A stretch of 50,429 nucleotides of DNA from a virus (taxonomy: Duplodnaviria > Caudoviricetes), in the IMG/VR virus record IMGVR_UViG_3300021356_000031, positions 1 through 50,429 of that record. One strand, written 5' to 3'. The translations under genes were made by a program, and so were the position numbers. The notes beneath the pieces are model-generated. The model did not search any database and had not been told where the DNA came from. It was given only the letters and a program-made list of their open reading frames with translations. Below are positions 3,123 to 44,056 of the stretch, one piece after another. The first letter of the stretch is position 1. Every line of letters begins with the position of its first letter.

Positions 3123-6100
3123 ATGAGTAGTAAAAGGTCTAGCAGGAATAATAAAAAGGTTTTAAAAGCACTTCGCCAGAAGAGAGCTAGAGGTGGGCGT
3201 ACTAAAAAGTTTTATGGTGGTGTTGAAGGCATGACAGGGCTTAATATCCCTAGCGAAGCTGAAATACAAGCTCGTATAAGACAGCAGCAAGATACTAATC
3301 AAGAAACTCCTGAACAAAAAGCCGCTAGAGAGGCGCAAGAAAAAGCAGCTAAAGAAGAAGCCGATAGACAAAAAGCAGAAGCGGATAGACTTGAAGCTGA
3401 AAAAAAAGCAGAAGCGGATAGACTTGAAGCTGAAAAAATAGCAAAACAAGGGAAGGTTAGTAGTGGCACCCAACCTACTACTACTACTACTACTCCTACA
3501 CCTACTACTACAACATCTTCTGTTGATGATCCTAAGCCTTTAAGAAGTGATTATGGTTCTAATTTAGGTGGACGTAGAGCAATTACTGCAAGTCAAGCCT
3601 ATGAAAGAGATTTAGCGGCATGGGAAGCTAGACAAGCTGCTAATATAGACGTAACAGAAGGAATTGGTAGTGGGTCTCCTACAGACATTGCCACCAGTAC
3701 AGTACAAGAAGGAACTACTATGAGCACTACAACATCGACACAGGGAGGCCCTCCAATAAACTTAGAAGTAACGCCTCCTGAAACTCCAGATGCTCCAGTA
3801 GCAGACGTAGCCAAATTAGACACAGGCGCTATAACTGAAAAGTCTTCTGATGCAGATAAACTAGCAGCGGGTATTAGCACTGAAGTTCAGCAGTTAGATA
3901 CTACGCCTACTGCCGTTACAAGAGATAAGGCTGAAGCTGGTGTAGCTAAAGCAGAAGCTGTGAGCAAAACTTCTAAAGCTGAAAGTGTAAAAGACTTTGA
4001 TGCTGCTACATATGATGCAGCAACGGCAGAAGATCTTGATCCTACTAAAGCTGCTGTAGGAACAGTTAGCGAGGATGCTATAGCTAAAGTAGATGAAGTA
4101 GAAGGTCTTACAGAAAGAGCAGTAGGTCAAGAAACTACTGCTGCTCAAAAAGAAAGTACTTTGGCTAAAACAGCTGAGTTTACTATTGATCCTCGTTCTA
4201 TTGCACCTAGCGTAGAAGGAGATGTTGCTAATGTAAGTCCTACCGCTGAAGCTGAAAGATCAACACGTAGAGATATTGTAGGGACAGAAGCCGATGATGG
4301 CACTGCTGCTATGATTGATCAAACTGTAGGCTACGAAGCAGCTAAACGTCGAGCAGTAAAAGGAACAGCCGCAAAAGGTGCAGCCGCAGAAATGATTGCA
4401 GCTGTAGGTGATCTACCTCCTGATATTACAGCGGCTGTTGTAGAAGACCCTGCAACTGTAGAGGCTCAATTAGATGAGCAACCTGTAGAGGTAAGAGCAG
4501 CTATTGCAGCGTTGCCTACAGAAGCTTTAGTATCTTCTCAAATGGAGTCTTTACTTGGAGGTATTGAAGATGGAGAAACACCCGCATGGGCTAGGCCAGC
4601 AGTAGCAGCTATTGAGCAAAAACTAGCTGCTAGAGGCATGTCAACCTCCACTGTAGGGCGTGATGCACTATTTAATGCGATTATACAAAGTGCTTTACCT
4701 ATCGCGCAAAGCAACGCACAGGCACTCCAGCAACGCGCTGCCCAGAATCTTAGCAATCAACAGCAGGCTAATCTTGCACAGTCTACACAAGACATGCAGC
4801 GGCGTATGGCTAACTTAGCTAACCGTCAAGGGGCTGCTTCGCAGACTGCGCAAATGGCTCAACAGATGGGTGTATTGCAAAGCAACTTTAACCAGCAAGC
4901 AACTGTTCTGTCTGCACAACAACAACAGCAAACAAGAACTCAAAACTTAAATAATCAACAACAGGCTGCTGTGCTTCGTTCTCAAAACCAACAAGCTATA
5001 AACGCTCAACAGCTAGGTAACGAACAGCAGATGGAGCTTGCTGAGTTACAAATTGAAGCTGCTACAGAAGGTGCAAATCAAAATGCAGAGAATCAAAGAA
5101 GGTTAGCAGAGATGCAAGTCGCTGCCGACTTCTTATCTAAAAATGCAGCATTTAAGCAGCAGATGGAGCTTGCTAACCTTTCTAATGATCAGCAGATGCG
5201 TCTTGCTAATTTAACAGCAAGAAATCAAGCTGAGTCTCAAAGGATGTCTAATGCAGAGAAAATTGAGTTAGCAAATTTAAATGCAGAGCTACAGACAAAT
5301 ATAGCTCAGGGGCGTATAGCCGCAGAAATGAATGTTGCTCAATTAAATGTAGATCAACAGACAGCTATTAGAAATGCTACTATGGTTGCTAATGTTGATT
5401 TAACTAAATTTAACGCGGCTCAACAAGTAGAGCTTGCTAATAGTAAAGCAATGCAAACTTTAGTTCTTGCAGATTTAAATAATCGACAGCAGGCAGCATT
5501 ACAGAATGCTACAGCTATGGCTAGTTTGGATATGGCAACAGTAGATCAAAGAACTAAAATAGCTGTAACGAATGCTCAAAGTTTTTTAGCTATGGACATG
5601 GCTAATTTGAATAATGAACAACAAGCTATTATGTTTGATCAACAAGCTAAACAACAAAGAATATTATCTGATCAAGCAGCTGAGAACGCAAGACGGCAAT
5701 TTAATGCTACTTCTGAAAATCAAGTAAATCAATTTTTAACTTCTACAGAAGCAGCGATGCGACAATTTAATGCTAGTCAAAATAATGCTATGAAGCAATT
5801 CAATGCAAGTGAAGCGAATAGAGCTTCTGCTCTTAATGCTCAGTTAGCTACTGATGTTTCTAAAGCTAATGCTACAATGAAACTAAATGCAGATCAGTTT
5901 AATGAAAATATGGATTTACAAAGAGAAACATGGAATGCTGCCAATGCTCAAGCAGTAGAGCAATCTAACATTGAGTGGCGAAGAAAATCAAACACGATTG
6001 ATACCGCAGCACAGAATGCTTCTAATATGCTAAATGCTCAGCAGACCTTTCAAATGGATTCTGCTGAAATGGCTTTCTTGTGGCAAACTCTTAGAGATGA

Positions 6101-6260
6101 AGCCACATATCAAAGAACGGCATATGAAAATGATCAGCAAAGAAAAACAACCTTGTATGCTACGGCGCTTGCAAATGAAGCAGGGGCTAGTGGACAAGAA
6201 AACTCTACTTCAGTAGATCGTTTATTTAACTTAGTTAAAGGTGTAACAGGTGGTAGCTAA
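3123..6260 (+). CDS. Large internal virion/ejection protein (Q/A/N-rich coiled coil)
   Basis: 1045 aa: basic N-terminus, T/P/A/E-rich linker and long helical Q/N/A repeats; located in the post-tail internal-protein block. Confidence 0.65.
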   Translation: MSSKRSSRNNKKVLKALRQKRARGGRTKKFYGGVEGMTGLNIPSEAEIQARIRQQQDTNQETPEQKAAREAQEKAAKEEADRQKAEADRLEAEKKAEADRLEAEKIAKQGKVSSGTQPTTTTTTPTPTTTTSSVDDPKPLRSDYGSNLGGRRAITASQAYERDLAAWEARQAANIDVTEGIGSGSPTDIATSTVQEGTTMSTTTSTQGGPPINLEVTPPETPDAPVADVAKLDTGAITEKSSDADKLAAGISTEVQQLDTTPTAVTRDKAEAGVAKAEAVSKTSKAESVKDFDAATYDAATAEDLDPTKAAVGTVSEDAIAKVDEVEGLTERAVGQETTAAQKESTLAKTAEFTIDPRSIAPSVEGDVANVSPTAEAERSTRRDIVGTEADDGTAAMIDQTVGYEAAKRRAVKGTAAKGAAAEMIAAVGDLPPDITAAVVEDPATVEAQLDEQPVEVRAAIAALPTEALVSSQMESLLGGIEDGETPAWARPAVAAIEQKLAARGMSTSTVGRDALFNAIIQSALPIAQSNAQALQQRAAQNLSNQQQANLAQSTQDMQRRMANLANRQGAASQTAQMAQQMGVLQSNFNQQATVLSAQQQQQTRTQNLNNQQQAAVLRSQNQQAINAQQLGNEQQMELAELQIEAATEGANQNAENQRRLAEMQVAADFLSKNAAFKQQMELANLSNDQQMRLANLTARNQAESQRMSNAEKIELANLNAELQTNIAQGRIAAEMNVAQLNVDQQTAIRNATMVANVDLTKFNAAQQVELANSKAMQTLVLADLNNRQQAALQNATAMASLDMATVDQRTKIAVTNAQSFLAMDMANLNNEQQAIMFDQQAKQQRILSDQAAENARRQFNATSENQVNQFLTSTEAAMRQFNASQNNAMKQFNASEANRASALNAQLATDVSKANATMKLNADQFNENMDLQRETWNAANAQAVEQSNIEWRRKSNTIDTAAQNASNMLNAQQTFQMDSAEMAFLWQTLRDEATYQRTAYENDQQRKTTLYATALANEAGASGQENSTSVDRLFNLVKGVTGGS
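3372..3437 (+). repeat. Tandem 33-bp in-frame duplication (KAEADRLEAEK x2)
   Basis: aaagcagaagcggatagacttgaagctgaaaaa occurs twice. Confidence 0.9.
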
Positions 6261-7615
6261 TGGGATTTTTTAAAAAAATATTTAAAGGCATAGGTAAAGT
6301 TTTTCGTAAGATTGGTAGGGCAATTAAGAAAGGCTTTAAAAAATTTGGTAAGTTCATGGGTAAGCTTGGCATTGTAGGTCAGCTAGGTATGATGTTTATT
6401 CTTCCGGGGATAGGGGGTGCCCTTATGAAGGGCCTTGGAGGTATTGCAGGTAATATGGCAGCACTTACTGGAAAGTTTGCAGGTCTTAGCGGCACGGCGC
6501 TGGGTACAGCTGTTAAGGGCATGGGAGCCGTATTGAAAGGCGCTCATGGTTTTGTTCAAACAGGTGTAAATGCTTTTAAAACTGTTACAAGCGGAATTAT
6601 GGAGTTTGGTAAAACAGCGTTAAACAAAATACCCGGAATTGAAATTAGTAGTGCCAAAGCAAACTTCTTTGGTGCTGATAGCGTAATGGAAGGTATTCGT
6701 GTGGATGCGGCTAATATTGGAAACCCTTTCCGCAACAGTATTACACTAAAGCCCGGAATGTCTGTAGATCAGTTAAGTAAAACAACAGGTTTATCAGTAG
6801 AATCTTTACAAAAATTAAATCCAAATGTTAATTTATCGGCTCCGGGGGCTGACCTTACTGGGCGTACATTGAATTTAGATTTTGGTAATATTGCTCCTGA
6901 TATACAAAAAGTTATTGAAAATGCTAAGATAACAACTGCTGGTGGAGTTCCTTCAGACGCTTTTGGAGTTGATGTAGGAAGAGTTGATACGCTAAGGCCG
7001 GGAGAAGTAAATTTAAACTTTGACCACACGCCTACCCAGAACAATGGTTTTCCAACAAGTGCTGTTGATCCTTTTCCAGAAGTAACTAGTGTATTAAACC
7101 AAGCAGATTTAACTAGAATAGCTTCAGTAGAAATGCCTAACATTACAACTAATTTATTAGAGCCTATACCTGTAGATAAAATTGGAACGACTATGGCAGA
7201 TCCAGTAGGCACGATTGCAGATCCAACTACAGCTATTGAAAGTGTAGTACCTGATGGTCTGGCTGAAGTAGGAGCTACTCAACAAGAATCGTTATTATCT
7301 AGAGGTTTTACTAGGGCTAGAGAAGGTTTGTCAGCAAGCCTTACTAGTGCTTTAGATGATCCTATCGGCACAGGCTTGCCTATGGTTCAAAATCTAGCAA
7401 GTACTTTTGCTTCTCCAGAAGAAATTGATATGGGTCGAAGAGGCCCCGGATTTGTTGCAGATGTACTGCCACAATTTGATATTGCATCTGTTGATATGAC
7501 TCAATTATTAAATGCTGGCAACTATGGGCCGGGAGCCGTATCAATGGATTTCGTAAATCAAGCTATGCTATTTCAAAGCCCGAATCAACGCTTTCCGGGC
7601 GCATTAGGTTACTAG
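6260..7615 (+). CDS. Internal virion/ejection protein with amphipathic N-terminus and a degenerate LysM-like segment
   Basis: MGFFKKIFKGIGKVFRKIG..., a Gly-rich hydrophobic stretch, and ITLKPGMSVDQLSKTTGLSVESLQKLNP. Confidence 0.6.
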   Translation: MGFFKKIFKGIGKVFRKIGRAIKKGFKKFGKFMGKLGIVGQLGMMFILPGIGGALMKGLGGIAGNMAALTGKFAGLSGTALGTAVKGMGAVLKGAHGFVQTGVNAFKTVTSGIMEFGKTALNKIPGIEISSAKANFFGADSVMEGIRVDAANIGNPFRNSITLKPGMSVDQLSKTTGLSVESLQKLNPNVNLSAPGADLTGRTLNLDFGNIAPDIQKVIENAKITTAGGVPSDAFGVDVGRVDTLRPGEVNLNFDHTPTQNNGFPTSAVDPFPEVTSVLNQADLTRIASVEMPNITTNLLEPIPVDKIGTTMADPVGTIADPTTAIESVVPDGLAEVGATQQESLLSRGFTRAREGLSASLTSALDDPIGTGLPMVQNLASTFASPEEIDMGRRGPGFVADVLPQFDIASVDMTQLLNAGNYGPGAVSMDFVNQAMLFQSPNQRFPGALGY

Positions 7616-7625
7616 GAGATAAATA

Positions 7626-8180
7626 ATGAGTATGCCACAAATTAATACTGATTTTATACAAGCAAGACTAAGCAGGTCTGTTCCGGGTGAGTCTTTTGCT
7701 AATGATCCTGATACTCCGTATCCATTTGAAAAGGCTCCAGAGTTTACTTCTGTAAATAAAGCTTCAGAATTTATTTTTGAAAGAATTACTGAAGAAGAAA
7801 ACTATATGCAATTTATGGAAGTAATTGCAGGGGGTACGCCTCTAATGGAGATTGCTAAAGTATTGCTGTACTCTATGTATGACGAAGGTAAAATTAATCC
7901 TGATTTAATGATATTATTAATTGAACCTACTGTGTATATTTTAATGGCTTTGTGTGAGCGAGCAGACATTCCTTTTACTATTGATGGTGAGTTAGGCGAA
8001 GAAGAAGATCTTGATGGTAATAGTCAAGATTACGAAATTTTACAAAGACTTCAAGAGGCCCAAAGGTCAAATGAAATACCTTTACCACAAAATATAGAGC
8101 AAAGGTTGCAAGAGCTTAGGCCACCACCGCCTGAAGAGTCGCCCCCTGAACAAACAAGTCTACTAGATATGGAGCAGTAA
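7626..8180 (+). CDS. Hypothetical acidic virion-block protein
   Basis: 184 aa, GGAG SD, VPGES...PFEKAPEF motif. Confidence 0.7.
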   Translation: MSMPQINTDFIQARLSRSVPGESFANDPDTPYPFEKAPEFTSVNKASEFIFERITEEENYMQFMEVIAGGTPLMEIAKVLLYSMYDEGKINPDLMILLIEPTVYILMALCERADIPFTIDGELGEEEDLDGNSQDYEILQRLQEAQRSNEIPLPQNIEQRLQELRPPPPEESPPEQTSLLDMEQ

Positions 8181-9902
8181 ATGGCTATTGAAGAGTTTGG
8201 AGAATCATTACTTTCAGCCCAACGTGAGCGGTTTGCTGAGCAAGATAGGCAGGCACGTAAAGCACAAAAGAAAGCTAAACAAGCGCAGTATATGCAACTG
8301 GGCGGTGCCTTGATCGGCTCTCTAGCTCAAACAGGTGCCCAAAAGAAAGCAGCATCTTTTATGCGTAGTGAACCTATTATGGCTGCTAGGGCTAAATATA
8401 ATGCTGGCGTAGCGCAAAGTATTTCTCATTTAGAAAATAATAAACTAGCTCAAGCGCATCAACAAGGTGTTGTAGGTTATTTACGAGATAAATATATTCC
8501 GTTAATACAAGATCAAGTTAATAGAAATATTGATGAAAAAGATTATACTAAAGATGGGTATGACAAATACATCTATGACAAAGCTACTGAATTAGCTCAA
8601 GCTAACGAATCTAAGTTTAACGAAGCTACTGTTGCTGCTATGCGCGTAGGTAAGGACTCCACAGCCTTTGATAACTTTATTAAGTTGAATGACGGCATTG
8701 CTGATACTCCTATAGGTGCGGTAGCTCAAGGCATTACTGGACTCTTTAGAGGTAAATCTCAGCAAGCCTTACGAGCAGATGCAGCTAACAATATTATTAG
8801 TAGTAGATACATTCAAGATGTTGATGCTTTGAAAGCGGCGCAGTCTGCACTAGCCCAAGGCTTCCCGGCGTTAGAGGCCGCGCAGATTGGTCAAAGTGTA
8901 GAAAACTATAAAATGTCTGATGATGATTATAATGAAATTAGTCGAAAAGACGATACTATTACAAAACATATAGCAGGCAAACAATATACTATTACAGGTA
9001 CTCGTGTAATTAAAGAAAATTCATGGGGTCAAAAAAGAGAAACTTTTCAGCCTGATGCAGAGTTTGCTGATCTAGCAAAAAGTTTAACGCCTCCACCAAC
9101 AGTTACAAACGAGACTATAACGGCTATGGGCATAGAATATAATGTTACAACAAAACAACCTATGGATGTTTATGGTAATCCTACTGGTCAGCCTATAATT
9201 ACAAGGCAAGCAATAGGGCCTAGTTTGCGGGGGGCCGCAGCTATAGATGCTAGAGAAGTAAATGAAGTAGGCTCTCAAGTAAGAATGAGATTGCAAACTT
9301 TTAAAACTGGTGTATCAGATAATCCTTTTGAAGACTTTAGTGAGCCTTATGGCGAGTACGTTCTTGCAGATACAGATTTTACTGATAAAGATACTCAGCC
9401 TAAAGATTTATTTGATGCAAGATCCGCTGAAATGATAACTCAAGGATCAAAAATTACAACAGCTACTAATTCAAATAAGTACGCAAATAACTCTAAAAAT
9501 TTAGGAGTTACAATAAGTCAGCATGTATTTTTAAATGATATGGCAAGAATGAGTGATCAAGCCATTGGTGAAGATAACTATGATTTTTCAAAAACTCTTA
9601 TGGTTGCTGGAGCAGATCATTCACCTTTAGAAATTTTAGAAGCCATAGGTAGTATTAAAAAATCTAGACACGCAACAGTAGATTCTCAATATGTAAATAG
9701 CCTGTTAAGTCGAAATTTTTTAGGTGATCAACTAAATGCTTTACAGAGCGATCCAGAAACTTTAGGTAAATACATTAAAGCTTTTAATGCTTATCAAGAT
9801 GATCCAGCATATAATCATTTATTTAGAAAAGAAATACCTTTTGCTGGAGAACGCGCTTCAGTTTATGATTTAATGTTATTAACACAAAGAGCTAGTCAAT
9901 GA
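8181..9902 (+). CDS. Putative internal virion protein
   Basis: 573 aa, abuts neighbouring genes in the operon. Confidence 0.6.
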   Translation: MAIEEFGESLLSAQRERFAEQDRQARKAQKKAKQAQYMQLGGALIGSLAQTGAQKKAASFMRSEPIMAARAKYNAGVAQSISHLENNKLAQAHQQGVVGYLRDKYIPLIQDQVNRNIDEKDYTKDGYDKYIYDKATELAQANESKFNEATVAAMRVGKDSTAFDNFIKLNDGIADTPIGAVAQGITGLFRGKSQQALRADAANNIISSRYIQDVDALKAAQSALAQGFPALEAAQIGQSVENYKMSDDDYNEISRKDDTITKHIAGKQYTITGTRVIKENSWGQKRETFQPDAEFADLAKSLTPPPTVTNETITAMGIEYNVTTKQPMDVYGNPTGQPIITRQAIGPSLRGAAAIDAREVNEVGSQVRMRLQTFKTGVSDNPFEDFSEPYGEYVLADTDFTDKDTQPKDLFDARSAEMITQGSKITTATNSNKYANNSKNLGVTISQHVFLNDMARMSDQAIGEDNYDFSKTLMVAGADHSPLEILEAIGSIKKSRHATVDSQYVNSLLSRNFLGDQLNALQSDPETLGKYIKAFNAYQDDPAYNHLFRKEIPFAGERASVYDLMLLTQRASQ

Positions 9903-12900: not shown

Positions 12901-15226
12901 AGATGTAGATGAGGGCCTTGCGTATCTTAAAAGAAATGATGGGCAAATAAATACAAAAGATCCATTTTATAAGTCTGTTAAGCGTGGTGCTGGCCGATAT
13001 GTAAATGAAGTAGTTTTAGATACGGGGCCTAGAGCAGCTATAAAACCTATTTGGATGTCCGATCCAAAGAAGGCTATTTTTGCTGAGCTTCTTGGATATC
13101 CTACAGCTTTTTCAAATAAAGTTTTAAAAGAGTTTGTTAGAGGTTTTTCAAAGCCTATAGATAATCCTGAAGCTTTTGCAAATGCCTTGGCAGCTTCTTT
13201 GTCTATGACAGCTGCCGCTATTGGTTTAAACTATGTTCGTAATCCTGATTCTTTTAATGATAAAAGTGGAGCAGAGATAGCGGCTGAAGGCGTATCTAGA
13301 TGGGGTGGGGCTGGTATACTATTAGATATGGTGCAAAGAACTCAAAAAACTTATGACATCACAGGTAATCCTGCTACAGCCGCGTTAGGTCTGGCTGGGC
13401 CTGTCGGTAGTGATATAGGTAGAGTAGCAAGTTACGGTAAACTAGGGCCTATCATTGGGGGCAGAATGCCGGGATATGGTCTTCTTGGTTCGCTTCCTAA
13501 TGAAACAAAAGAACAATACGATAAATTTTTTAGCGACTTAGAAAAGAAAGAAAAAAGACTGCCTTATAGGAAAGGAGGTGAAGTTGAAATAGAAAGGGCT
13601 GCTGAAGAGCCTGATGAGCGCATAGATAAAGTAACAGGCAGACCTTACGATTCTCAAGCTGGTGAAGCTTTTATTGATGAAGAGGATCGCTCTGAGCGCA
13701 AGCAGTTTGTTATTGGAGGACTTTCAAGAGCAATATCTAGAGAGCTTTCACCTTTTGTTAGTGAACTAGCTAAAACTATTTTGGGAGAAACCAAAAAAAA
13801 TAATGTAAAGGTAAGTCAAGAGGGCGCTGTAAAGGTTGCAAAGAATATTGAAGAAGCTTACTCCAGCACTGATCCAGATATGCCTGCTGATTTAGATGAT
13901 CCAGATTTTCGTGAGTTTGTATTTACAGATACAAAACAGCTGTTAAATGAAAAACACGATATGTCTATGGCTGATTTTAGAGCAGAAATGCCAGAATTTA
14001 TAGATAAAGATAATACGTTAATTATGGGGCGTGAATTTAGTAAGGCGCGTGGTTATGACGATGAGCAGATCAGAGACTTTGAAAGAGCTATGGAGCTTTC
14101 AGAAATGTTTGCTATGGAAGGCAACGATGTGATGGATGTTAGCGCCCACATAGCACAAGAGCTAGATACTATTGGTGCTAGAGCTTTAGGCACAGATTGG
14201 ATAAGTAAGTTTGATAATATTTACAAAACTTCTGCTGCCAGATATGATAACAGAGTTGTAACTTCTAAAGAAGTGCAGGCACTAATAGATGAGTTTACGC
14301 CAGAAGAAAGAAAGCTGGCTAAAAAAATATTTAGTAAAATGCCTCGCCAAGCTTTGCAATTAGATCAGCAAGGTAAACGTGTAGCTATCGACTATTCAGT
14401 TTCAGATGAGCAACGATTAGATAACTTAGATAAGTTTTTAGCTAACTCTCAAGAAAAGAATATGGTCTATCGCTCAACAGCCAGTGGTTTCTTTAATGAG
14501 TTTGATGAGGCTGTAAACATGCCGCAGGAAACAGGGCTGCATGTGGGCACTAAGGCTCAAGCGGAGCGTATGGCGTTGTTCCGCAGGGAAGATGAAGATG
14601 TGTATGATGAAGATAGTGGAATATCATCTAAAAAACTATCTAAGCGTCTTGCAGAGCCTGTGCGCGAAGGGGAGACTCCACCGCCTTTAGCAATGACTAG
14701 AGGGTTTATACGGGTGGAAAGTCCACTATTAATAGAAGATATGAGCTTTGGAACTTACTCTAATGCGACATCTCTATTTGATTCTCCCAGTACGATGGCT
14801 GCAATAACAGAGGCTGTGCTAACACAAGCTCCCAAGCTAAATGCTACTAAGTTCAGTAATGCAAAACAGAACCTGTATGAAAAAGTATTAGACTTTGAAG
14901 CTTGGCAAGAGGCTGTAACAGATGGCACCCTTAATAAAAAGAAAATGTCAGAAAAAGATTTACTTGTGGAGCGTATGAAGATAGCGGATTTAAATATTAC
15001 ATTTAGAAAAATGCTAGAAGATCAGGGTTTTGACTCTATTAAATATTTAAACTTAGCAGATACTCCTGCTGAAGAAGAAACTGTAAATGCTTTTTCTTAC
15101 ATACTGTTTAAGCCTGAGCAATACAAAACTCAAAATGCTGTAGAGTTTGATCCCAAAGATCCACGGCATAACTTTGAGCATGGGGGTAAAGTACTAACTG
15201 TTTTAAAGAGAAGGAAAGCAGCATGA
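9899..15226 (+). CDS. Very large internal virion/ejection protein with C-terminal ADP-ribosyltransferase-like domain
   Basis: 1775 aa helical body with DYFPRLW. C-terminal VYRST...GLHVGT...QGFDSIKY...YILFKPEQYK...FDP pattern resembles ART-PolyVal. Confidence 0.65.
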   Translation: MTEILKPKLNFNDENAIAEALKQTPLQKVPEAAQDSTFSVSDFKARRADDLEAVFEYKFGESDYYKALRDNVQDFAPDEIIDRLRQDSMTFSGFGTAAMLEKAPQEVKDAYGRILQDWDKTDPEGFENLTALFSNTKHLVQDPVTAATLMIGGPALPMAAQAAVKKELGKKALQFMASNTRNANMTKAAAAGAGWAGLGNSSEQAVNMAADIQKDFDGIQLSTALGTGAVIGAPLGRYSEDIGAALGRGAARLNERFFRSKIGDDNIKTSVDETVVERQMVQETGAPLQRDELTLEEAQEGGLEFINEVEEVLEGIAPSPEKAQSQAKFNAKRAREAINKANKEAQEDRLYGGFVSDSELDEIAEQYDIDRENLEEIIFDYEANRDLPNVDDFDDYLIEEVGEVFYNLNKAKKRKEFAIASFSNYMANRKKGSDPVPENLERAVNALTIMAQEAGRVDPPQAIVSKAQAFTAKIGGSEKTEAEVADVLMQAEQGLISPDNARAALLKTTQKFHGKYVFGRPTKVLTKFSESPTAVRLAEMMRYDANQTFTSETKQVGMDFNETWKDYAGSLYSPLIQAMHGLRDISHGGLKDAINLDLSRALRGQKSQSEEVNKAASLIRKNVLNTVVDRNRELGFETDLIDEDYFPRLWNRSAILKDFYGTSNVFTDEKRNKLAGKGPNKFAKLLVADGEAENIQEANAIIAGMLKKKTDAEGPAGAEFVSGNSFFTARKFTNIKNDNKYEEFLDNNVENVMFQYITQSANKYTKRKVFGVDTLERSDLPFDQRKDFNTVYIDRIKAEVEAAGNTFTGQDYKDIQNLYKSMTGEGIEDYGQGGQVARDTYATLVRMSTLPLATISSLTEILLNIQKAGTKESVKGFGNALAQGTELITNGIRRRLGQQGLSDPEIFDEMRESFLMLENANISAADRLGDSSIAGHGFKQANRKFFQVTLLDGWTKTVQLSAYNTGKSLIHKNLKAIADNGTLPDSKRIGNMRDQLAALNVDVDEGLAYLKRNDGQINTKDPFYKSVKRGAGRYVNEVVLDTGPRAAIKPIWMSDPKKAIFAELLGYPTAFSNKVLKEFVRGFSKPIDNPEAFANALAASLSMTAAAIGLNYVRNPDSFNDKSGAEIAAEGVSRWGGAGILLDMVQRTQKTYDITGNPATAALGLAGPVGSDIGRVASYGKLGPIIGGRMPGYGLLGSLPNETKEQYDKFFSDLEKKEKRLPYRKGGEVEIERAAEEPDERIDKVTGRPYDSQAGEAFIDEEDRSERKQFVIGGLSRAISRELSPFVSELAKTILGETKKNNVKVSQEGAVKVAKNIEEAYSSTDPDMPADLDDPDFREFVFTDTKQLLNEKHDMSMADFRAEMPEFIDKDNTLIMGREFSKARGYDDEQIRDFERAMELSEMFAMEGNDVMDVSAHIAQELDTIGARALGTDWISKFDNIYKTSAARYDNRVVTSKEVQALIDEFTPEERKLAKKIFSKMPRQALQLDQQGKRVAIDYSVSDEQRLDNLDKFLANSQEKNMVYRSTASGFFNEFDEAVNMPQETGLHVGTKAQAERMALFRREDEDVYDEDSGISSKKLSKRLAEPVREGETPPPLAMTRGFIRVESPLLIEDMSFGTYSNATSLFDSPSTMAAITEAVLTQAPKLNATKFSNAKQNLYEKVLDFEAWQEAVTDGTLNKKKMSEKDLLVERMKIADLNITFRKMLEDQGFDSIKYLNLADTPAEEETVNAFSYILFKPEQYKTQNAVEFDPKDPRHNFEHGGKVLTVLKRRKAA

Positions 15227-17305: not shown

Positions 17306-17503
17306 ATGCCAGCAGCTAAGAAACCAGCGAAAAAAAAATCCAGAGTTAACGAGGCAGGTAATTATACTAAGCCTACAATGCGTAAGCGTTTATTTAACAA
17401 GATCAAGGCAGGTTCTAAAGGTGGAAAACCGGGGCAATGGTCAGCCCGTAAAGCTCAGATGCTTGCTAAACAATATAAAGAAGCAGGTGGCGGGTATAAG
17501 TAA
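17306..17503 (+). CDS. Small basic protein (DUF5872-like N-terminal half)
   Basis: GSKGGKPGQWSARKAQMLAKQYKEAGGGY; GGAGG SD. Confidence 0.7.
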   Translation: MPAAKKPAKKKSRVNEAGNYTKPTMRKRLFNKIKAGSKGGKPGQWSARKAQMLAKQYKEAGGGYK

Positions 17504-18129: not shown

Positions 18130-18374
18130 AAAAATCACAGAAGTCCCTTAAAGAGTGGACTAAACAGAAATGGGGTACTAAGTCAGGTAAACCATCAACA
18201 CAAGGAGCAAAAGCAACAGGTGAAAGGTATCTCCCGAAGAAGGCTAGAGAGGCTTTATCAGCAGCGGAGTACGCTGCCACTTCCAGAAAGAAAAGAGAAG
18301 ACACCAAGAAGGGAAAGCAGCACTCAAAGCAACCTAAGAAAATAGCTAAGAAGACAGCGAGGCATCGTAAATGA
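18120..18374 (+). CDS. Small basic protein (DUF5872-like C-terminal half)
   Basis: QKSLKEWTKQKWGT...ERYLPKKAREALS...KKGKQ. Confidence 0.7.
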   Translation: MGLKKSQKSLKEWTKQKWGTKSGKPSTQGAKATGERYLPKKAREALSAAEYAATSRKKREDTKKGKQHSKQPKKIAKKTARHRK

Positions 18375-18685
18375 GAGAAGAATATAAAAAAGGCGGCAAA
18401 GCTAAAAAGAAAGATCCAAGACTAGCCCGTGCGGGTGTTACTGGATACAACAAGCCTAAAAGAACTCCTAAGCACCCCACAAAGTCTCATGTTGTTGTTG
18501 CAAAACAAGGAGATCAAATTAAAACAATTAGGTTTGGTCAGCAGGGTGTGAGGGGTGCTGGTAAAAATCCTAAAACTGCTAAAGATAAAGCTAGAAAAAA
18601 ATCTTACTATGCTCGCCATAATGCCCAAGATCCTAATCCGTCTAAGCTTTCGGCTCGTTATTGGTCACATCGCGTAAAATGGTAG
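18371..18685 (+). CDS. Small basic protein
   Basis: 104 aa; KTIRFGQQG...RKKSYYARH...SARYWS..KW; N-terminal REEYKKGG tag. Confidence 0.75.
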   Translation: MREEYKKGGKAKKKDPRLARAGVTGYNKPKRTPKHPTKSHVVVAKQGDQIKTIRFGQQGVRGAGKNPKTAKDKARKKSYYARHNAQDPNPSKLSARYWSHRVKW

Positions 18686-34877: not shown

Positions 34878-34885
34878 AAGTTAAA

Positions 34886-36001: not shown

Positions 36002-36009
36002 GAAAAAAC

Positions 36010-36038: not shown

Positions 36039-36044
36039 AAGAGC

Positions 36045-36428: not shown

Positions 36429-36639
36429 ATCTAGTTCTACAATACCTTTTGGATATATACTTTCTGAAGATCCTAAGTTTCTAGAAGAAGTTCCAGAAGA
36501 GTTAGAAGCTCTAGAAAAAGTAAAACCTTTAATAAAAGATAAGACTCTTAGCCTTCGTGAAGGAGCTATGTGGCTAGAACACACTACGGGACGTAGCTTG
36601 AGTCATACAGGATTAAAAAAGATAGTTAATAATGGATGA
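36415..36639 (+). CDS. Small putative DNA-binding protein
   Basis: IPFGY...PEELEAL...SLREGAMWL...GR.LSH.GLKKI resembles the DNA-binding recombinase-domain pattern. Confidence 0.6.
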   Translation: MLRRRSSSTIPFGYILSEDPKFLEEVPEELEALEKVKPLIKDKTLSLREGAMWLEHTTGRSLSHTGLKKIVNNG

Positions 36640-38317: not shown

Positions 38318-38318
38318 T

Positions 38319-38687
38319 ATGAAAAAAAGAACTAAATACAACAATGGTGGATTAAGCACTTCTTTTAGTAAAGGTGTATTTGAACTAGAAGGAAATGTAA
38401 CAGGAAATAAACAACAAAGAACTTCCCAAGGGACAGCTTCTTTAACTGGAGGTGGTTATAAAGCTTCTATAAATAAAGGCTATGATACCCAATCAGGCAA
38501 AAGTCAAAACTATAGTTTAGAAAAACAACTGCCTAATCAATCTTCAGTTGTTTTTAAAAAGAATAAAAATAATACAAGTTTAGACTATCATAAACAAACA
38601 AGCAAAGGTTCAAATATTAAATTCGGACTAAATAGAAATGCTCAAGGCGATTTAGGTATTAGCATGGGTTTTTCTAAACCTATTTAA
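38319..38687 (+). CDS. Beta-strand-rich hypothetical protein
   Basis: MKKRTKYNNGG followed by alternating beta strands, ending GISMGFSKPI. Confidence 0.6.
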   Translation: MKKRTKYNNGGLSTSFSKGVFELEGNVTGNKQQRTSQGTASLTGGGYKASINKGYDTQSGKSQNYSLEKQLPNQSSVVFKKNKNNTSLDYHKQTSKGSNIKFGLNRNAQGDLGISMGFSKPI

Positions 38688-38697
38688 AGGTATATTA

Positions 38698-40851
38698 ATG
38701 GCAGAAACTAATTTAACAGCTAATAACATTTACTTTGAAGATGTACCGAATGAAGACGGTATGCAGCTTACGCTGGAAGAAAACCTGCGTAACAACTTAG
38801 TAGGTCTTATTAATGATCGCTATACTTCTGCTAAGATGTCTCGTGACTTAGATGAGCAGCGATGGCTAACAGCTTACCATAACTATCGTGGTCTTTATGG
38901 CAAAAATGTACGCTTTAGAGAATCTGAAAAATCTAGAGTGTTTGTTAAAGTAACTAAGACTAAAGTTCTTGCAGCCTTTGGTCAACTCGTAGACGTAGTA
39001 TTTGGTGCTAATAAGTTTCCGATTGGAATTACAGAAACTAAAGTACCAGAAGGTGTATCAAAACACGCACACGTTACTCCGGGTGTTGAAACTTCGCAAC
39101 CTGAAGTTCAAGAAGAAACAACAGAAAATCCATATGATGTAGGTTATGAAGGTGACGGGCGTGTTTTAAAGCCCGGAGCTACTTATGGTACGGGTAAGTT
39201 TGAAGAGATAATGCTTGACAAGCAGGCCGAAGAAAAAGACATGCTTGTTGAAGGTTTATCTCCAGACCCTCAAGTTCTTGAATTAAGTCCAGCGCAGAAA
39301 GCTGCAAGACGTATGGAAAAAATAATTCACGATCAGATAGAGGAGTCAAACGGCGCTAGTGAAATTAGAAACGCATTATTTGAATCAGCTTTATTCGGCA
39401 CAGGAATCGTTAAAGGGCCATTCAATTTTAACAAAACCCTCCATCGATGGGCTGAAGGAGAGGACGGTGATCGAACTTACTCTCCTGTTGATGTTAGGGT
39501 GCCTCGCTTGGAGTTTGTTAGCATCTGGGATTTTTTCCCCGACCCCAACGCAACAAATATTAATGAATCAGAGTATGTATTCCATAGACATAGAATGAAT
39601 CGTACTCAGCTTCGTAGTCTTGGTAAGATGCCTTACTTTGACAAAGAAGCTATACGTACATGCCTTCAGATGGGGCCTAACTACGTAGAAGAAGATTATG
39701 AATATGAACTAAAAGATGATAACCGTGGTGATGACTATGGTTCATCTCAGTATGAAGTTCTAGAGTATTGGGGCGTGATGGATGCGGAATACTGTCGCCA
39801 AGTAGGTATGGAAATACCCGAAGATGTAGACGACCTAGACGAAGTTCAAATAAACGCTTGGACTTGCAACGGTCAAATGCTTCGCAGTGTTGTAAATCCA
39901 TTCACCCCCTTCCGTATTCCTTATCATGCGTTTAGCTACGAAAAGAATCCCTATAGCTTTTTTGGTATAGGCGTAGCAGAAAACATGGATGACTCTCAAA
40001 AGATTATGAATGGTCATGCACGTATGGCTATTGATAATCTGGCTCTATCAGGCTCTGTAATCTTTGATGTTGATGAAACTGCCCTTGTAGGCGGTCAGAG
40101 CATGGAGATTTATCCCGGTAAAGTGTTCAGACGGCAAGCAGGTGTGCCCGGAACAGCTATTAATGGCTTAAAGTTTCCAAACACTACTGTAGAAAATATG
40201 CAGATGTTTGATAAATTCCGACAGCTTGCAGACGAGCAAACAGGTATTCCATCTTACAGTCATGGTCAAACAGGCGTACAAAGCATGACACGTACCGCAT
40301 CAGGTATGTCTATGTTGCTGGGTGCAGCTTCATTAAATATTAAAACTGTTATTAAAAATCTTGATGACTTCTTGTTAAAGCCTTTAGGTGAAGCATACTT
40401 CCAATGGAATATGCAGTTTTTAGATTCTAAGTTAGGTGTAGAAGGTGATTTAGAAGTTAAGGCTACAGGAACTAACAGCTTGATGCAGAAGGAAGTACGC
40501 TCTCAAAGGCTTACAATGTTTCTTCAAACAGCGGCTAACCCTGCCGTGGCTCCGTTTATTAAGATGAATAAACTTATTAGTGAACTGGCGTATAGTTTAG
40601 ATCTAGACCCAGATGAACTAATGAATGACCCTGAAGAAGCTGCAATGATGGCTCAGATTATAGGAATGCAAAACAATGTTGGACAAGCAACTGGCGCGGA
40701 AGCTGGCCCCGGTGGTCAAGAACAAGGAGCTATGGGAGCCGCTGAAGGAGTACCTGAACAGCCTCAAGACCTTGGAGCTACAGGTACTGGTGGCGGCAAC
40801 ATCGGAACTGGAGCTGTTCCGCAGCCAAGGGAAGATGAGTTTTCTGGCTAG
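38698..40851 (+). CDS. Portal protein
   Basis: 717 aa after TerL; SRVFVKVTKTKV, FGTGIVKGP, DFFPDP, RTASGMSML. Confidence 0.9.
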   Translation: MAETNLTANNIYFEDVPNEDGMQLTLEENLRNNLVGLINDRYTSAKMSRDLDEQRWLTAYHNYRGLYGKNVRFRESEKSRVFVKVTKTKVLAAFGQLVDVVFGANKFPIGITETKVPEGVSKHAHVTPGVETSQPEVQEETTENPYDVGYEGDGRVLKPGATYGTGKFEEIMLDKQAEEKDMLVEGLSPDPQVLELSPAQKAARRMEKIIHDQIEESNGASEIRNALFESALFGTGIVKGPFNFNKTLHRWAEGEDGDRTYSPVDVRVPRLEFVSIWDFFPDPNATNINESEYVFHRHRMNRTQLRSLGKMPYFDKEAIRTCLQMGPNYVEEDYEYELKDDNRGDDYGSSQYEVLEYWGVMDAEYCRQVGMEIPEDVDDLDEVQINAWTCNGQMLRSVVNPFTPFRIPYHAFSYEKNPYSFFGIGVAENMDDSQKIMNGHARMAIDNLALSGSVIFDVDETALVGGQSMEIYPGKVFRRQAGVPGTAINGLKFPNTTVENMQMFDKFRQLADEQTGIPSYSHGQTGVQSMTRTASGMSMLLGAASLNIKTVIKNLDDFLLKPLGEAYFQWNMQFLDSKLGVEGDLEVKATGTNSLMQKEVRSQRLTMFLQTAANPAVAPFIKMNKLISELAYSLDLDPDELMNDPEEAAMMAQIIGMQNNVGQATGAEAGPGGQEQGAMGAAEGVPEQPQDLGATGTGGGNIGTGAVPQPREDEFSG

Positions 40852-40909
40852 ATTAGAAACATTACCTTCTCAAGTAGACGAAGCACTTAATAGGAAAGAA
40901 TATGACTAA
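40676..40909 (+). CDS. Small helical protein overlapping the portal C-terminus
   Basis: 77 aa with ELFRSQGK..L..L motif; AGGA SD; its stop overlaps the next gene start. Confidence 0.65.
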   Translation: MLDKQLARKLAPVVKNKELWEPLKEYLNSLKTLELQVLVAATSELELFRSQGKMSFLARLETLPSQVDEALNRKEYD

Positions 40910-41528
40910 ACAAAAACTTACAGACCTAACAGGCGATGGTAAAATAACTCAGGCAGATGTTTTAAAAGGTCGTGGAGTTTTTAATGAAGGAGGCTCTATG
41001 ATGATACCTCCTGAAGGTGTGCCAGTGGATACTTATCCAAATATACCAGAAGACGAAATGGATGAAGCAATGGCATCACAACTTCCAGATAATGAAATGG
41101 AAGATAACTACATTGAATATGTGATGGATGAGTCACTCAATGACGAAGAACAAGATTATTTAGCAGAAGTATTACAAGGAGATCCAAGGTTGTCAGACAT
41201 CTTGGACAAAGTAATTACTACTGCTTCAGAATTTTCGGGTGCTGGAGAAGTCGAAGGCCCCGGAACTGGTGTATCAGATTCTATCCCCGCTCGTTTGAGT
41301 GATGGAGAGTTTGTATTTACCAGAAAAGCAACCGACCAGATTGGTGCAGACAATCTCCAACGAATGATGGACGATGCTGAACGTGCCTATGATGGCGGTT
41401 TACAACGTGAAGACATGGCTATTGGTGGCATGGCACAAGATGAAGAAGAACTTTCTCCATTAAGTAAAACCGATGAGGAAATTAAAAAGCTCATGATGGG
41501 TGCCAACAAAATGCCTAGTCTTCGTTAA
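40902..41528 (+). CDS. Acidic head-associated protein with GPGTGxSDSIPARLSDGEFV domain
   Basis: 208 aa between portal and scaffold; N-terminal DLTGDGKITQADV EF-hand-like loop; two GG tags. Confidence 0.7.
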   Translation: MTKQKLTDLTGDGKITQADVLKGRGVFNEGGSMMIPPEGVPVDTYPNIPEDEMDEAMASQLPDNEMEDNYIEYVMDESLNDEEQDYLAEVLQGDPRLSDILDKVITTASEFSGAGEVEGPGTGVSDSIPARLSDGEFVFTRKATDQIGADNLQRMMDDAERAYDGGLQREDMAIGGMAQDEEELSPLSKTDEEIKKLMMGANKMPSLR

Positions 41529-41534
41529 TTTTAC

Positions 41535-41767
41535 GGCTACCTTGGTAAGACAAGCCCCATAAACTCGACGGAGTTAATATGGCTACCTTGCAAGACACAA
41601 GCCCCGTGAAGGAGATTGAGAATGTCAGAAGTACAACAAGAGGAAACACCTAATCCATATAACGCTAGAAAGTCTTGGCACACGCCAGATAAACCCAGTA
41701 TGGGAAATGCAGATGGATTATTTTTTGAACCTCAACAAGAGCAGGCTACCCTTGATGAAGAGGCCCC
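41535..41767 (+). promoter_or_regulatory. Three copies of a GGCTAC-stem-loop-CCCC motif around the scaffold gene start
   Basis: Copies at 41535-41558, 41581-41605 and 41744-41767. Confidence 0.65.
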
Positions 41768-42458
41768 TGATCAACAAGAGGAACAACCTCGTAAAAGAAC
41801 TAACTATAAAAAGCGATACGATGATCTAAAGCGTCATTATGATCAAAAGCTTGGAGAGTTTAAACAAAAGGAGCAAGAGCTTCTTGCAATGGCTCAACAG
41901 GCACAGCCTCGCTATGAACCGCCTAAATCTGAAGAAGAGATAGAAAGTTTTAAGCAGGAGTATCCTGATCTTTACAATACTGTTGAATCTGTAGCACATA
42001 TGCAGAGTCAACGGCAGGTAGCAGAACTTGAAGCACAACTACAGTCTATGCGTCAGCGTGAGGCTGAAGTAATGCGTCGAGAGGCTGAAGCTACTTTACA
42101 ACAGCGTCATCCAGACTTTGATGAAATCAGAGGGGATGAGCAGTTTCATGAGTGGGCAAAGCAGCAACCTGAGCAAATTCAGGATTGGGTTTATAACAAC
42201 CCTGATAATGTTGCTTTGGCATCAAAAGCTATTGATCTTTATAAGTTAGAAACTGGCAAGACTCAAACTAAACAACAGTCCAGAAAAAAACCTCAAGGTT
42301 CAGCAGCAGATATGGTATCAACTAAAACAACTAACGTAGATGCTGGTCAACCTAAGATTTGGACTGAACGGGAAATCGCTGCTATGTCCCTAGATCAGTT
42401 TGATAAGCACGAAGCTGACATCAAACAAGCAATGATAGAGGGTCGTGTAGTAGCATAA
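41622..42458 (+). CDS. Capsid scaffolding protein
   Basis: Directly upstream of the MCP; Q/E-rich coiled coil, YKKRYDDLKRH, HPDF, C-terminal EGRV. Confidence 0.85.
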   Translation: MSEVQQEETPNPYNARKSWHTPDKPSMGNADGLFFEPQQEQATLDEEAPDQQEEQPRKRTNYKKRYDDLKRHYDQKLGEFKQKEQELLAMAQQAQPRYEPPKSEEEIESFKQEYPDLYNTVESVAHMQSQRQVAELEAQLQSMRQREAEVMRREAEATLQQRHPDFDEIRGDEQFHEWAKQQPEQIQDWVYNNPDNVALASKAIDLYKLETGKTQTKQQSRKKPQGSAADMVSTKTTNVDAGQPKIWTEREIAAMSLDQFDKHEADIKQAMIEGRVVA

Positions 42459-42485
42459 TTAACTTTGTGTTAGGAGTATATTAAC

Positions 42486-43475
42486 ATGGCTAATAACGTA
42501 TCAGATCAATTTTTTGAGCCGTCAACCGATACAGATGCAAACTTTGCGAATTCCGTATCAGGTCAGGCGAATTCATTTTTCTTACCTAAAGTTTATTCCA
42601 AGCAGGTATTAAACTTTTTCCGTAAGGCTTCTGTAGTTGAAGCAATCACCAACACCGACTATGCAGGTGAAATTGCACAGTTTGGTGATAGTGTACGCAT
42701 CATTAAAGAGCCTGAAATTACTGTTTATCAGTATGAGCGTGGTCAAGACGTAACGCAGACCAAGCTGACCGACCAAGAAATTTCCTTGGTTGTTGACATT
42801 GCAAACGCATTTAAGTTCATCGTAGATGACATTGAAACCAATATGTCTCACGTTAACTTCCGTGACGTTGCTACGTCTTCAGCGGCTTATTCTTTGCGTG
42901 ATGCTTTTGACTCAGGTGTACTGGCAACGATGTTTGCTGGTGTATCTAGCTCTAGCCCCGACCATATTCTTGGTTCTGATAGCGCAACTGACCTTGCTGC
43001 TGGTACTTTTGACGGTACTGGTAACTTGGACATTGGTTTTGCTTCAGGTGAGCATGATCCTATCGACGTAATGGCTCGTATGGCTCGTTTGCTTGATGAG
43101 CAAAACATTCCTGAAGAAGGACGATGGTTTGTAGCTAGTCCTGAGTTCTATGAAGTACTTGGACAAGCAAGCTCTAAGCTACTGTCTGTAGACTTCAACG
43201 CAGGTCAAGGTTCCATCCGTAATGGTTTGGTAAGCTCTGGCAAGCTGCGTGGATTCGATATGTACAAGTCAAACAACATTGCTGCAACGTCTAACGCTGC
43301 TGGCAAGTGCTTGGCGGGTCACATTTCTTCTACGGCTACTGCTCAAACTATTACCAGCACTGAAGTGATCCGTGATCCTTCTAGCTTTGGTGATATTGTT
43401 CGTGGTCTACACGTTTACGGTGCTAAGGTACTGCGACCAGAAGCTCTGGTTTCAGCTTTCTACGGTATCGACTAA
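42486..43475 (+). CDS. Major capsid protein
   Basis: FLPKVYSKQVL, NTDYAGEI..GDSVRI, GDIVRGLHVYGAKVLRPE; AGGAG SD; terminator follows. Confidence 0.93.
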   Translation: MANNVSDQFFEPSTDTDANFANSVSGQANSFFLPKVYSKQVLNFFRKASVVEAITNTDYAGEIAQFGDSVRIIKEPEITVYQYERGQDVTQTKLTDQEISLVVDIANAFKFIVDDIETNMSHVNFRDVATSSAAYSLRDAFDSGVLATMFAGVSSSSPDHILGSDSATDLAAGTFDGTGNLDIGFASGEHDPIDVMARMARLLDEQNIPEEGRWFVASPEFYEVLGQASSKLLSVDFNAGQGSIRNGLVSSGKLRGFDMYKSNNIAATSNAAGKCLAGHISSTATAQTITSTEVIRDPSSFGDIVRGLHVYGAKVLRPEALVSAFYGID

Positions 43476-43486
43476 TAGACCGTTAT

Positions 43487-43517
43487 GGGAGGGCTGCTTC
43501 GGTGGCCCTCTCTTTTT
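43487..43517 (+). terminator. Intrinsic terminator after the MCP gene
   Basis: GGGAGGGCTGC-TTCG-GTGGCCCTCTC-TTTTT. Confidence 0.9.
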
Positions 43518-43532
43518 ATTGGAGATTTTTAA

Positions 43533-43742
43533 ATGCCTCAAATCGGTTCAGATGCAAAACCAATGATGTTTCGTAAAACTCTTGTAAGTAAAGAAAGCCG
43601 TTTCCGAAAAGGAATGAATCTTTCTCAGTACAAAGATAATTATGATCGTATTTTTAACAAGTCTTCGGATACTACGGAGTATGCTACAGAACTTGAGGCA
43701 GCTAGAGAAAAAAGTAAAACTTTTTCAATGGAGCAAGACTAA
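43533..43742 (+). CDS. Hypothetical protein
   Basis: 69 aa, GGAG SD, YKDNYDRIF motif. Confidence 0.7.
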   Translation: MPQIGSDAKPMMFRKTLVSKESRFRKGMNLSQYKDNYDRIFNKSSDTTEYATELEAAREKSKTFSMEQD

Positions 43743-44056
43743 TGAGTTTATTCAAAACGATTAAAAAATTAGTAGCTGAAGTAAATCAAAAAACAAACTA
43801 CGGTGGTGTTCAAGAGCTACCCATGTATGGGATTGGATACGATGAAAAAATCCAATATAATGAAGGGGGTCAGACTATGTACGGTAAAGATAAAAAGAAA
43901 GGTATGATGTACGGTGGTATGAGCCGTAAGAATAAGATGGGCGGTGGGCGTTCTATGTACGGTCATGGCGGTAAAGCTTCTTCAGGTATTTATGAAATGG
44001 AAGCAGCTTGTAATGAAATGGCTGGATATAACAAAAGTGCGGCAAGAGGCAAATGA
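43742..44056 (+). CDS. Small Gly/Met/Lys-rich protein with four GG tags
   Basis: KIQYNEGG, KKGMMYGG, RKNKMGGG, RSMYGHGG. Confidence 0.65.
   Translation: MSLFKTIKKLVAEVNQKTNYGGVQELPMYGIGYDEKIQYNEGGQTMYGKDKKKGMMYGGMSRKNKMGGGRSMYGHGGKASSGIYEMEAACNEMAGYNKSAARGK

Follow-up and report, generated by a model that had tools for sequence, protein, structure and literature searches.

Near their distal end, the tape measure proteins of long-tailed phages carry a conserved hook, which spans residues ~730-785 of lambda gpH, residues 1018-1066 of gp46 of the Pseudomonas phage JBD30, and residues ~956-995 and 1410-1445 of gp16 of the mycobacteriophage Douge. Residues 1022-1066 of JBD30 gp46 are predicted as a hook like the C-terminus of T5 pb2* (PMC11445458), and the work on T5 describes how, once the hub has opened, the C-terminal segment of pb2 is inserted between the hub subunits and runs on as a beta-strand, and how pb2 is cut after R1127 (PMC10038345). 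Lambda gpH is cut in a glycine-rich region, with both the site and the catalyst still open (PMC12617516). Here we show how the element that flanks this hook is also present as a set of short peptide tags, of the strict pattern [RK]-x-x-[FYM]-x-x-G-G, in late proteins of the virus of IMG/VR record IMGVR_UViG_3300021356_000031, which is a marine podovirus of the HMO-2011 type. The window, that is, the whole stretch of DNA analysed, is the entire contig of 50,429 bases, and it encodes, beside the portal gene, a protein of 208 amino acids (aa) in which two such tags accompany a tape-measure-like hook.

In a phmmer search against PDB sequences, the 208-aa protein matched Douge gp16 twice (E 3.7e-9), JBD30 gp46 (E 0.006) and lambda gpH (E 0.077). 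Its residues 91-183 match the tape measure families of PHROGs, and a tblastn search with the hook region returned 362 isolate phage records, with nearly all of the 60 rows listed being annotated as tape measure. What these hooks have in common is a core, G-P-G-T-G-x-S-D-S-I-P-A-x-L-S-x-G-E-F-V, that is followed by a helix; in the tape measure proteins this core lies near the distal end, with an element [F/Y/M]-A-x-G-G-hydrophobic ahead of it and usually behind it too. In the alignments with Douge and JBD30 the residues ahead of the core read Y-A-G-G-G-F-L, Y-A-N-G-G-F-L and F-A-S-G-G-H-I, and in lambda gpH the hook core with its helix is bracketed by F-A-T-G-G-F (733) and Y-A-T-G-G-Y-V (778). 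The former lambda copy, K-F-H-F-A-T-G-G, satisfies the strict pattern, and the second tag of the 208-aa protein, which behind the helix has the [F/Y/M]-A-x-G-G form MAIGG, occupies the same place as the YATGG of lambda gpH. Among ten tape measure fragments sampled across the listing, all ten show [F/Y/M/L/K]-A-x-G-G at most 45 residues ahead of the core, and in seven it occurs at most 70 residues behind it; the flanking arrangement recurs from lambda to the phages of actinobacteria. Since the same flanking element stands beside the tape measure hook, we regard the tags as the podovirus form of a hook-associated element.

The hook of the window nevertheless differs from that of the tape measure proteins in that it sits in a short-tailed phage, in a 208-aa protein beside the portal that is no tail-length ruler, in that its flanking element has been multiplied and also occurs alone in other proteins, and in that G-G typically has a basic residue at -6, which in lambda is true of the first copy (KFHFATGG) only. 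A long, tube-filling protein that sets tail length is not what we find: the 208-aa protein is short and is accompanied by podovirus tail genes, namely those for an adaptor of the SU10 type and for a 532-aa protein orthologous to HMO-2011 gp44, the latter listed as tubular tail protein B in PMC4819975. It would therefore work like a hook module, and yet it is no tape measure protein.

A six-frame regular expression scan for the strict motif, and for variants with a basic fourth residue, recovered each of the ten strict and three variant matches that the sequence-only reading of this DNA had listed, all at the coordinates given there (Table 1). Genes were called with our own greedy picker of the longest open reading frames (ORFs), without a gene finder, which resulted in 61 genes comprising 16,067 aa and 110 GG dipeptides. 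The ten strict matches are spread over five proteins, every one of which is encoded by late genes on the + strand, and the strict motif is found neither in the 29 - strand replication genes nor in the major capsid protein (MCP), portal, adaptor, nozzle and tail fibres of the window, which upholds, for the 61 called genes, the earlier claim that replication, capsid, portal and tail proteins are free of it. Worked out by hand, an extra strict match at 28329 (-) and an extra variant at 34643 lie outside the called-gene frames, and extra variants at 35615 and 49942 fall in no listed gene. That the tags sit at termini had been proposed as well, and by hand count this is true for eight of the thirteen listed tags, which lie at most 35 residues from a protein end (five start within the first 35 residues), but not for the other five, which lie farther away. 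The R and G codons under the tags are a mixture of synonyms and no repeat is present, which rules out a repeat or regulatory word at the level of DNA; the signal therefore lies in the protein. Roughly, the consensus can be refined to R-x-x-[K/Y/F/M]-[A/N/x]-x-G-G-[S/L/M/K]-hydrophobic, and the tags are best explained as a single short linear motif that occurs repeatedly, within segments that are unstructured by themselves.

The conservation of the tags is most pronounced in the hook protein itself. In 80 viral contigs retrieved by portal similarity, an orthologue is present in 78, and its gene is always located behind the portal gene; at E <= 1e-3 the wider hook family comprises 3543 proteins, of which the best 150 were covered, and at E <= 1e-30 it still comprises 382. 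The hook core is the best-conserved part of the 208-aa protein, and 17 columns between residues 63 and 133 are invariant among 86 family members. At the first tag, site 1, the 73 aligned orthologues have R at -6 in 44 cases and the second G in all 73, followed by S (58), M/L, M/L, V/M, P (61), P and E (63). At site 2, located behind the helix, GG is kept in 57 of 57 aligned orthologues, with A at -2 in 47, with K (33), M (10) or Y (7) at -3, and with L/M/Y and then M/L/V downstream. The 208 residues of the window correspond to the conserved C-terminal part of the family, and relatives carry N-terminal extensions of up to several hundred residues. A set of 140 extensions (32,102 aa) holds 42 strict matches where 2.5 are expected, and around their 350 G-G sites the enrichment amounts to 6.7-fold for R at -6, to 4.9-fold for Y and 2.6-fold for K at -3, and to ~2.5-fold for A and N at -2, with M, I and L being favoured two places past G-G. 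Tandem copies are frequent, for example ...G-G-S-M-L-V-P-P-E-R-E-Q-Y-x-x-G-G.... The hook family also confirms that a basic fourth residue is allowed, as the earlier reading had noted: K is the commonest residue at this position, in 104 of 350 GG contexts.

How far do the tags exceed what would be expected by chance? When residues are shuffled within proteins, a mean of 1.07 strict matches is obtained with a maximum of 6, and none of 5000 shuffles reaches 10. However, the motif was chosen after seeing the data. As a correction we scored a family of ~120,000 two-class motifs, each consisting of a doubled-residue anchor and two residue classes, which could occupy any pair of the six positions before it; in this family the strict motif (Poisson P 2.4e-7) ranks 8 among 8698 scored motifs, behind motifs centred on Q-Q and S-S, and 8% of 150 shuffled proteomes yield some motif at least as extreme. 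Taken alone, the window is therefore suggestive and not significant. The strongest two-class motif of the proteome is a Q-Q centred repeat with N/Q at -5 and -2 (8 matches vs 0.29 expected), which we take to stem from an N/Q-rich repeat region common to the 1045-aa protein (3123-6260) and its relatives.

Stronger evidence comes from outside the window. From all 422 distinct G-G contexts of the 150 hook-family representatives, without selection on the preceding residues, we derived a scoring matrix, and applied it to the other 60 proteins of the window. Here it finds seven sites of at least 4 bits against 0.81 expected, a number that none of 500 shuffles reaches, and the seven sites are five of the strict tags and two variants: of the two 104-aa proteins, that at 43742 has two of the sites and that at 18371 has one, and the others are the tandem pair of the 1045-aa protein, that at residue 1220 of the 1775-aa protein, and one in the 130-aa protein. 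Furthermore, the late-strand proteins of five related isolate genomes hold 12 strict matches vs 4.0 expected (Poisson P 9e-4), two of which belong to a duplicated tail-fibre element, and their early proteins hold none vs 1.4 expected. As such, the enrichment in late over early proteins that the sequence-only reading had proposed to look for is present in the window and in these five relatives taken together. No comparable excess is seen for control motifs in which the spacing or the anchor is changed or aliphatic residues are used, all of which remain close to expectation. Counted per family, the hook proteins have 140 tags vs 5.3 expected (89 distinct sequences), and a family of small proteins rich in K, M and G has 57 vs 3.9 expected (24 distinct sequences, each of them tagged). 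Across the family sequences analysed, the portal, large terminase, MCP, nozzle and adaptor have no strict match, where 5.0, 2.5, 1.1, 2.5 and 0.5, respectively, would be expected. The tail-fibre matches KGLYLSGG of CRP-1 and YLSGG of the window fibre were set aside as a separate fibre element.

Tags are also kept in the orthologues of other late proteins. The 1045-aa protein, which resembles internal virion proteins, has orthologues in CRP-1 and HMO-2011 that carry a tandem pair as well, MAEGGMVKKYQEGG and MAKGGMIRKMQTGG. For the giant 1775-aa protein, a scan of viral contigs returned three loci with relatives, and in the only full-length one (L092, whose best segment is 54% identical) each of the three tags is retained: RLPYRKGG as RRAPFEKGG, RKQFVIGG as RKRFVKGG, and RHNFEHGG as RHGFIGGG at the same place. 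Because only one of the three loci is full length, conservation of the tags in this protein rests on one orthologue, and tblastn with its residues 1190-1300 gave no match in the isolate phages. The C-terminal end of HTVC115P gp40 reads KKSFKSGGLLDKKRG. The 104-aa protein at 18371 has an L092 orthologue that starts with MREDYKKGG and a CRP-1 orthologue without the tag, and all five distinct members of the 130-aa family, the window counted, carry the tag close to the N-terminus. Members of the K/M/G-rich family hold ~2 to 7 GG sites each, as read from their sequences. In the family of the 65-aa basic protein, K-x-Y-K-x-x-G-G-G-Y-K is found in 12 of 13 distinct members. Thus the earlier statement that one motif is common to late proteins without other similarity is confirmed, and it extends to orthologues in the 208-aa, 1775-aa, 104-aa, 130-aa and K/M/G families. 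We regard it as settled that the motif is real, specific to late proteins and conserved, and that its sequence pattern is that of the tape measure element.

Table 1. Tags, hook and tag-bearing proteins in the window (position 1 is its first base; scores are those of the hook-family matrix)
Feature	Coordinates	Strand	Location	Matrix score (bits)
Tandem variants RQKRARGG and RTKKFYGG	3174..3221 (starts 3174 and 3198)	+	residues 18-33 of the 1045-aa internal-virion-like protein (3123-6260)	5.4 and 5.6
RLPYRKGG	13556..13579	+	residue 1220 of the giant late protein of 1775 aa (9899-15226)	5.5
RKQFVIGG	13697..13720	+	residue 1267 of the 1775-aa protein	2.0
RHNFEHGG	15164..15187	+	ends 12 residues short of the C-terminus of the 1775-aa protein	-0.6
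Variant KQYKEAGG (absent from the earlier list)	17468..17491	+	C-terminus of the 65-aa basic protein (17306-17503)	
REEYKKGG	18374..18397	+	residues 2-9 of the 104-aa basic protein (18371-18685)	8.9
RTKYNNGG	38328..38351	+	residues 12-19 of the 130-aa protein (38295-38687), between large terminase and portal	4.9
208-aa hook protein	40902..41528	+	adjoins the portal gene; two tags and tape-measure-like hook	
RGVFNEGG (site 1)	40971..40994	+	208-aa protein; aligned in 73/75 distinct orthologues	
Hook core FSGAGEVEGPGTGVSDSIPARLSDGEFV	41232..41315	+	residues 111-138 (F111-V138) of the 208-aa protein	
REDMAIGG (site 2)	41406..41429	+	208-aa protein, behind the helix that follows the hook; aligned in 57/75 orthologues	
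104-aa protein rich in K, M and G	43742..44056	+	between the MCP and adaptor genes	
KIQYNEGG, KKGMMYGG, variant RKNKMGGG, RSMYGHGG	starts 43847, 43895, 43925, 43949	+	104-aa K/M/G-rich protein	

In an AlphaFold2 monomer model that was computed for the 208-aa protein from an alignment of 86 rows, the mean predicted local distance difference test score (pLDDT) is 71, and values below 50 occur exactly at residues 29-32, 122-129, 131-134 and 175-179, which are the two tags and the hook core. These are at the same time the best-conserved columns of the protein. For the 104-aa K/M/G-rich protein, the Atlas model has a mean pLDDT of 0.30. Segments that are conserved and yet predicted to be unstructured would suit motifs that act on a partner, and in this respect too the window resembles the tape measure proteins, where the corresponding region of lambda is unresolved when no partner is present (PMC12617516).

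So what exactly could the tags do? We tentatively favour, as a reading somewhat short of probable, that they serve as a docking motif or strand for proteins that pass through the tail channel. The closest counterparts of the motif are the elements beside the tape measure hook, which speaks for the tail channel and injection rather than for sorting into the head; binding of any kind, its partner and a role in injection are what we infer. The motif would fold only upon its partner, which could be the portal-tail channel or another injected protein, and proteins that exit through the tail would be held or lined up there by it. Such docking would parallel the way in which the C-terminal end of cleaved T5 pb2 latches into the opened tail hub. 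In this podovirus, which has no tape measure, the hook resides in the 208-aa protein beside the portal, and extra copies of its flanking motif are spread over the internal or injected proteins (1045 and 1775 aa), three small proteins and the variable extensions of the hook relatives. A short peptide by which diverse payloads are directed into an injection tube is also known from the Photorhabdus virulence cassette, in which N-terminal signal peptides load effectors into the tube (PMC11495950). That system, likened here by description and not by sequence, requires the AAA ATPase Pvc15, and its particle is contractile. Two uncontrolled runs of a complex prediction, in which the portal (717 aa) and the 208-aa protein were represented by alignments of 33 and 86 rows, both scored 0.00 and count neither way.

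We must however take into account several points that weigh against docking. The reading has no known partner to name, and lambda gpH residues ~690-817 are unresolved in cryo-electron microscopy maps, hence a structure of the bound motif is lacking there (PMC12617516). The element upstream of the hook in the window itself is FSGAG, and not x-x-x-G-G; elsewhere it is FSGGG (family member P0028), FEDGG (CRP-1) and FDEGG (HMO-2011). The tags at 13697 and 15164 score poorly by the matrix, the counts per family are not independent events because the members are homologous, and the match in the 65-aa protein probably lies within a folded small domain, which makes its membership of the tag set doubtful. 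Finally, the variable copy number in the small basic proteins (~2 to 7), together with the tags at extreme N-termini, fits repeated cleavage at least equally well.

This brings us to the alternative that the tags are processing sites, at or next to whose G-G a phage enzyme, a host enzyme or the protein itself makes a cut, which we consider possible though unlikely. Such cuts would trim short termini, free the conserved C-terminal 180 aa of the hook protein and chop up the small basic proteins. The glycine-rich region in which lambda gpH is cut (PMC12617516) holds FATGG at 733, and T5 pb2 is cut as well, but that cut follows R, not G-G (PMC10038345). Some tags are situated at residues 2-33 or at 12 residues from a C-terminus, the repeats in the small K/M/G-rich proteins and the unconserved extensions resemble precursor proteins, and site 1 is conserved on both sides, with R-x-x-K-A-E-G-G being followed by S-M-L-V-P-P-E. 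Against this, the CRP-1 orthologue of the 104-aa protein at 18371 manages without a tag, and no maturation protease, within the reach of the profiles, was found by Pfam or PHROGs scans of the 61 called proteins and of fragments of the giant proteins. Apart from an M15 cell-wall peptidase and the S74 tail-fibre chaperone, these scans matched no peptidase; when the 1775, 1045, 573, 451 and 184-aa proteins were searched in pieces of 300-400 aa, Pfam gave nothing above noise, and PHROGs gave no protease on the fragments. An unrecognised protease, a host enzyme or self-cleavage is possible alongside these negative scans. As it stands, the cleavage at the tags that the sequence-only reading had put forward receives no computed support, with no maturation protease detectable across the 50,429-base genome.

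The known di-glycine and head proteases do not offer a closer match. The protease of adenovirus (adenain) and pS273R of African swine fever virus belong to clan CE and cut at G-G-X, with small basic core proteins among the adenovirus substrates, and adenain requires M, L or I three residues before the cut. Both clan CE sites and the C39 leaders resemble the tags in having a glycine pair behind a hydrophobic residue. However, in the window the hydrophobic residue is one place farther from G-G than in clan CE, the adenain rule fits one of the ten strict tags, and no cognate cysteine protease of clan CE was found by Pfam or PHROGs in the called proteins or the giant-protein fragments. Double-glycine leaders of the C39 type differ as well, in that the upstream residues in the window are basic; no C39 or ABC domain was found by the profile scans, and many tags are internal or C-terminal. 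The capsid targeting sequence of T4 is a short terminal peptide that is removed by the prohead protease at L/I-x-E or similar, and it resembles the tags, as do the head propeptides of giant phages, in being a short terminal peptide that is shared by unrelated proteins of the virion interior. Those peptides are taken off by a prohead protease, whereas Pfam and PHROGs scans of the window matched no family of T4-type prohead proteases, the sequence is another one, and many of the tags are internal or repeated.

It is rather unlikely that the tags have no common function and that the pattern merely lumps together family-specific G-G beta-turns after an aromatic residue, K/M/G low complexity and chance hits. 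Such a view accords with the corrected P of ~0.08 within the window, with the low matrix scores of the two weaker tags of the giant protein, with the place of the 65-aa match in a well-conserved small domain, and with the need to separate the fibre element from the tags. Moreover, the related phage HTVC033P has no strict match at all, although it equally has no BLAST match to the hook protein. What argues against a mere lumping is that a matrix trained on the hook family recovers its seven sites in unrelated proteins of the window (counted as four), that R at -6 is enriched around GG even in the unconserved extensions, and that the same flanking arrangement is maintained from lambda to actinobacterial phages.

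Quite improbable is a head-cargo address that would bind scaffold, MCP or portal in the procapsid in the manner of T4 capsid targeting, for while the tags are confined to late proteins without assigned function, encoded beside portal, scaffold, MCP and the internal-protein cluster, while several are N-terminal and predicted disorder suits a binding peptide, and while the hook gene keeps its place behind the portal gene, a high and variable copy number is needless for a simple address, no computed result indicates a head location of the tagged proteins, and the closest relatives of the motif flank the hook of tape measure proteins, components of the tail lumen and not of the head, so that the loading of head cargo proposed from the sequence finds no computed support.

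The genome is organized in three gene blocks: a + strand block at 1-18888, a - strand replication block at 18851-35260 that encodes primase-helicase, DNA polymerase A and ribonucleotide reductase, and a second + strand block at 35892-50254. Its closest isolates are the Pelagibacter phages HTVC115P, HTVC104P and HTVC103P, with ~68% nucleotide identity across terminase, portal and capsid. The late genes for packaging and head encode the small and large terminase, an SU10-type portal, the 208-aa protein, a helical scaffold-like protein of 280 aa and a P22-type capsid protein; further late genes encode small proteins, the SU10-type adaptor, tail fibres, a LysM protein, the M15 peptidase and a holin, as well as a run of large proteins without Pfam domain (1045, 451, 184, 573 and 1775 aa). 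The end of the portal (40600-40851) is rich in glycine, ...GTGGGNIGTG..., and closes in E-D-E-F-S-G, which resembles the S-E-F-S-G-A-G that opens the hook core of the next gene product. The 1775-aa protein and the 288-aa LysM protein that follows it (15223-16089) match different parts of PHROG phrog_7348 (2564 positions), and the latter matches residues 1415-1591 of HTVC115P gp40 (1893 aa); a giant protein of other phages is therefore split or rearranged here. The 65-aa basic protein is 69-92% identical in distant relatives, and in HMO-2011 it corresponds to the C-terminal half of a longer protein. A 47-aa ORF right before the adaptor gene (44053-44196), missing from the first gene list, is kept in 23 related loci at 53-96% identity, with the consensus ...KGYHWMK...HKGASKS.... 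Within the replication block, a 175-aa ORF with T5orf172/MUG113 domains (25292-25819, -) adjoins the DNA polymerase gene, overlapping its start, and looks like an insertion of the homing-endonuclease type. The first ORF (2-2059) is tail-fibre-like and open at the 5' end of the contig, and the product of the last large gene (46568-50254) is a tail fibre of 1228 aa that bears an S74 chaperone domain. Probably, the genome is circularly permuted and the contig begins within its fibre region.

Two of the relatives carry a gene annotated as toxin-activating lysine-acyltransferase, HTVC115P gp46 (L001:28510-28959), located inside the cluster of internal-virion-protein genes, and HTVC103P gp34 (L009:9458-9907). 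This hints at lipid modification of some injected proteins in those phages. For the window, a role of G-G-K as a site of lysine acylation is ruled out, as no protein of the window has a BLAST match to the acyltransferase.

We found no description of the motif in open-access literature text. A wider proposal, of which we are doubtful, is that [F/Y/M/K]-A/x-x-G-G is a general code of tailed phages that marks docking and cutting of tail-channel proteins, including the cut that converts lambda gpH to gpH*. If true, such a code would be common to the tape measures of long-tailed phages and the internal proteins of short-tailed phages, and would have been multiplied into a genome-wide set of tags in phages of the HMO-2011 type. 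How short-tailed phages recruit and order the internal proteins that they inject is largely unknown, and a motif that is conserved, disordered and common to tape measure and internal proteins provides a concrete target for this question. Moreover, it could help to predict which of the unannotated phage proteins are injected.

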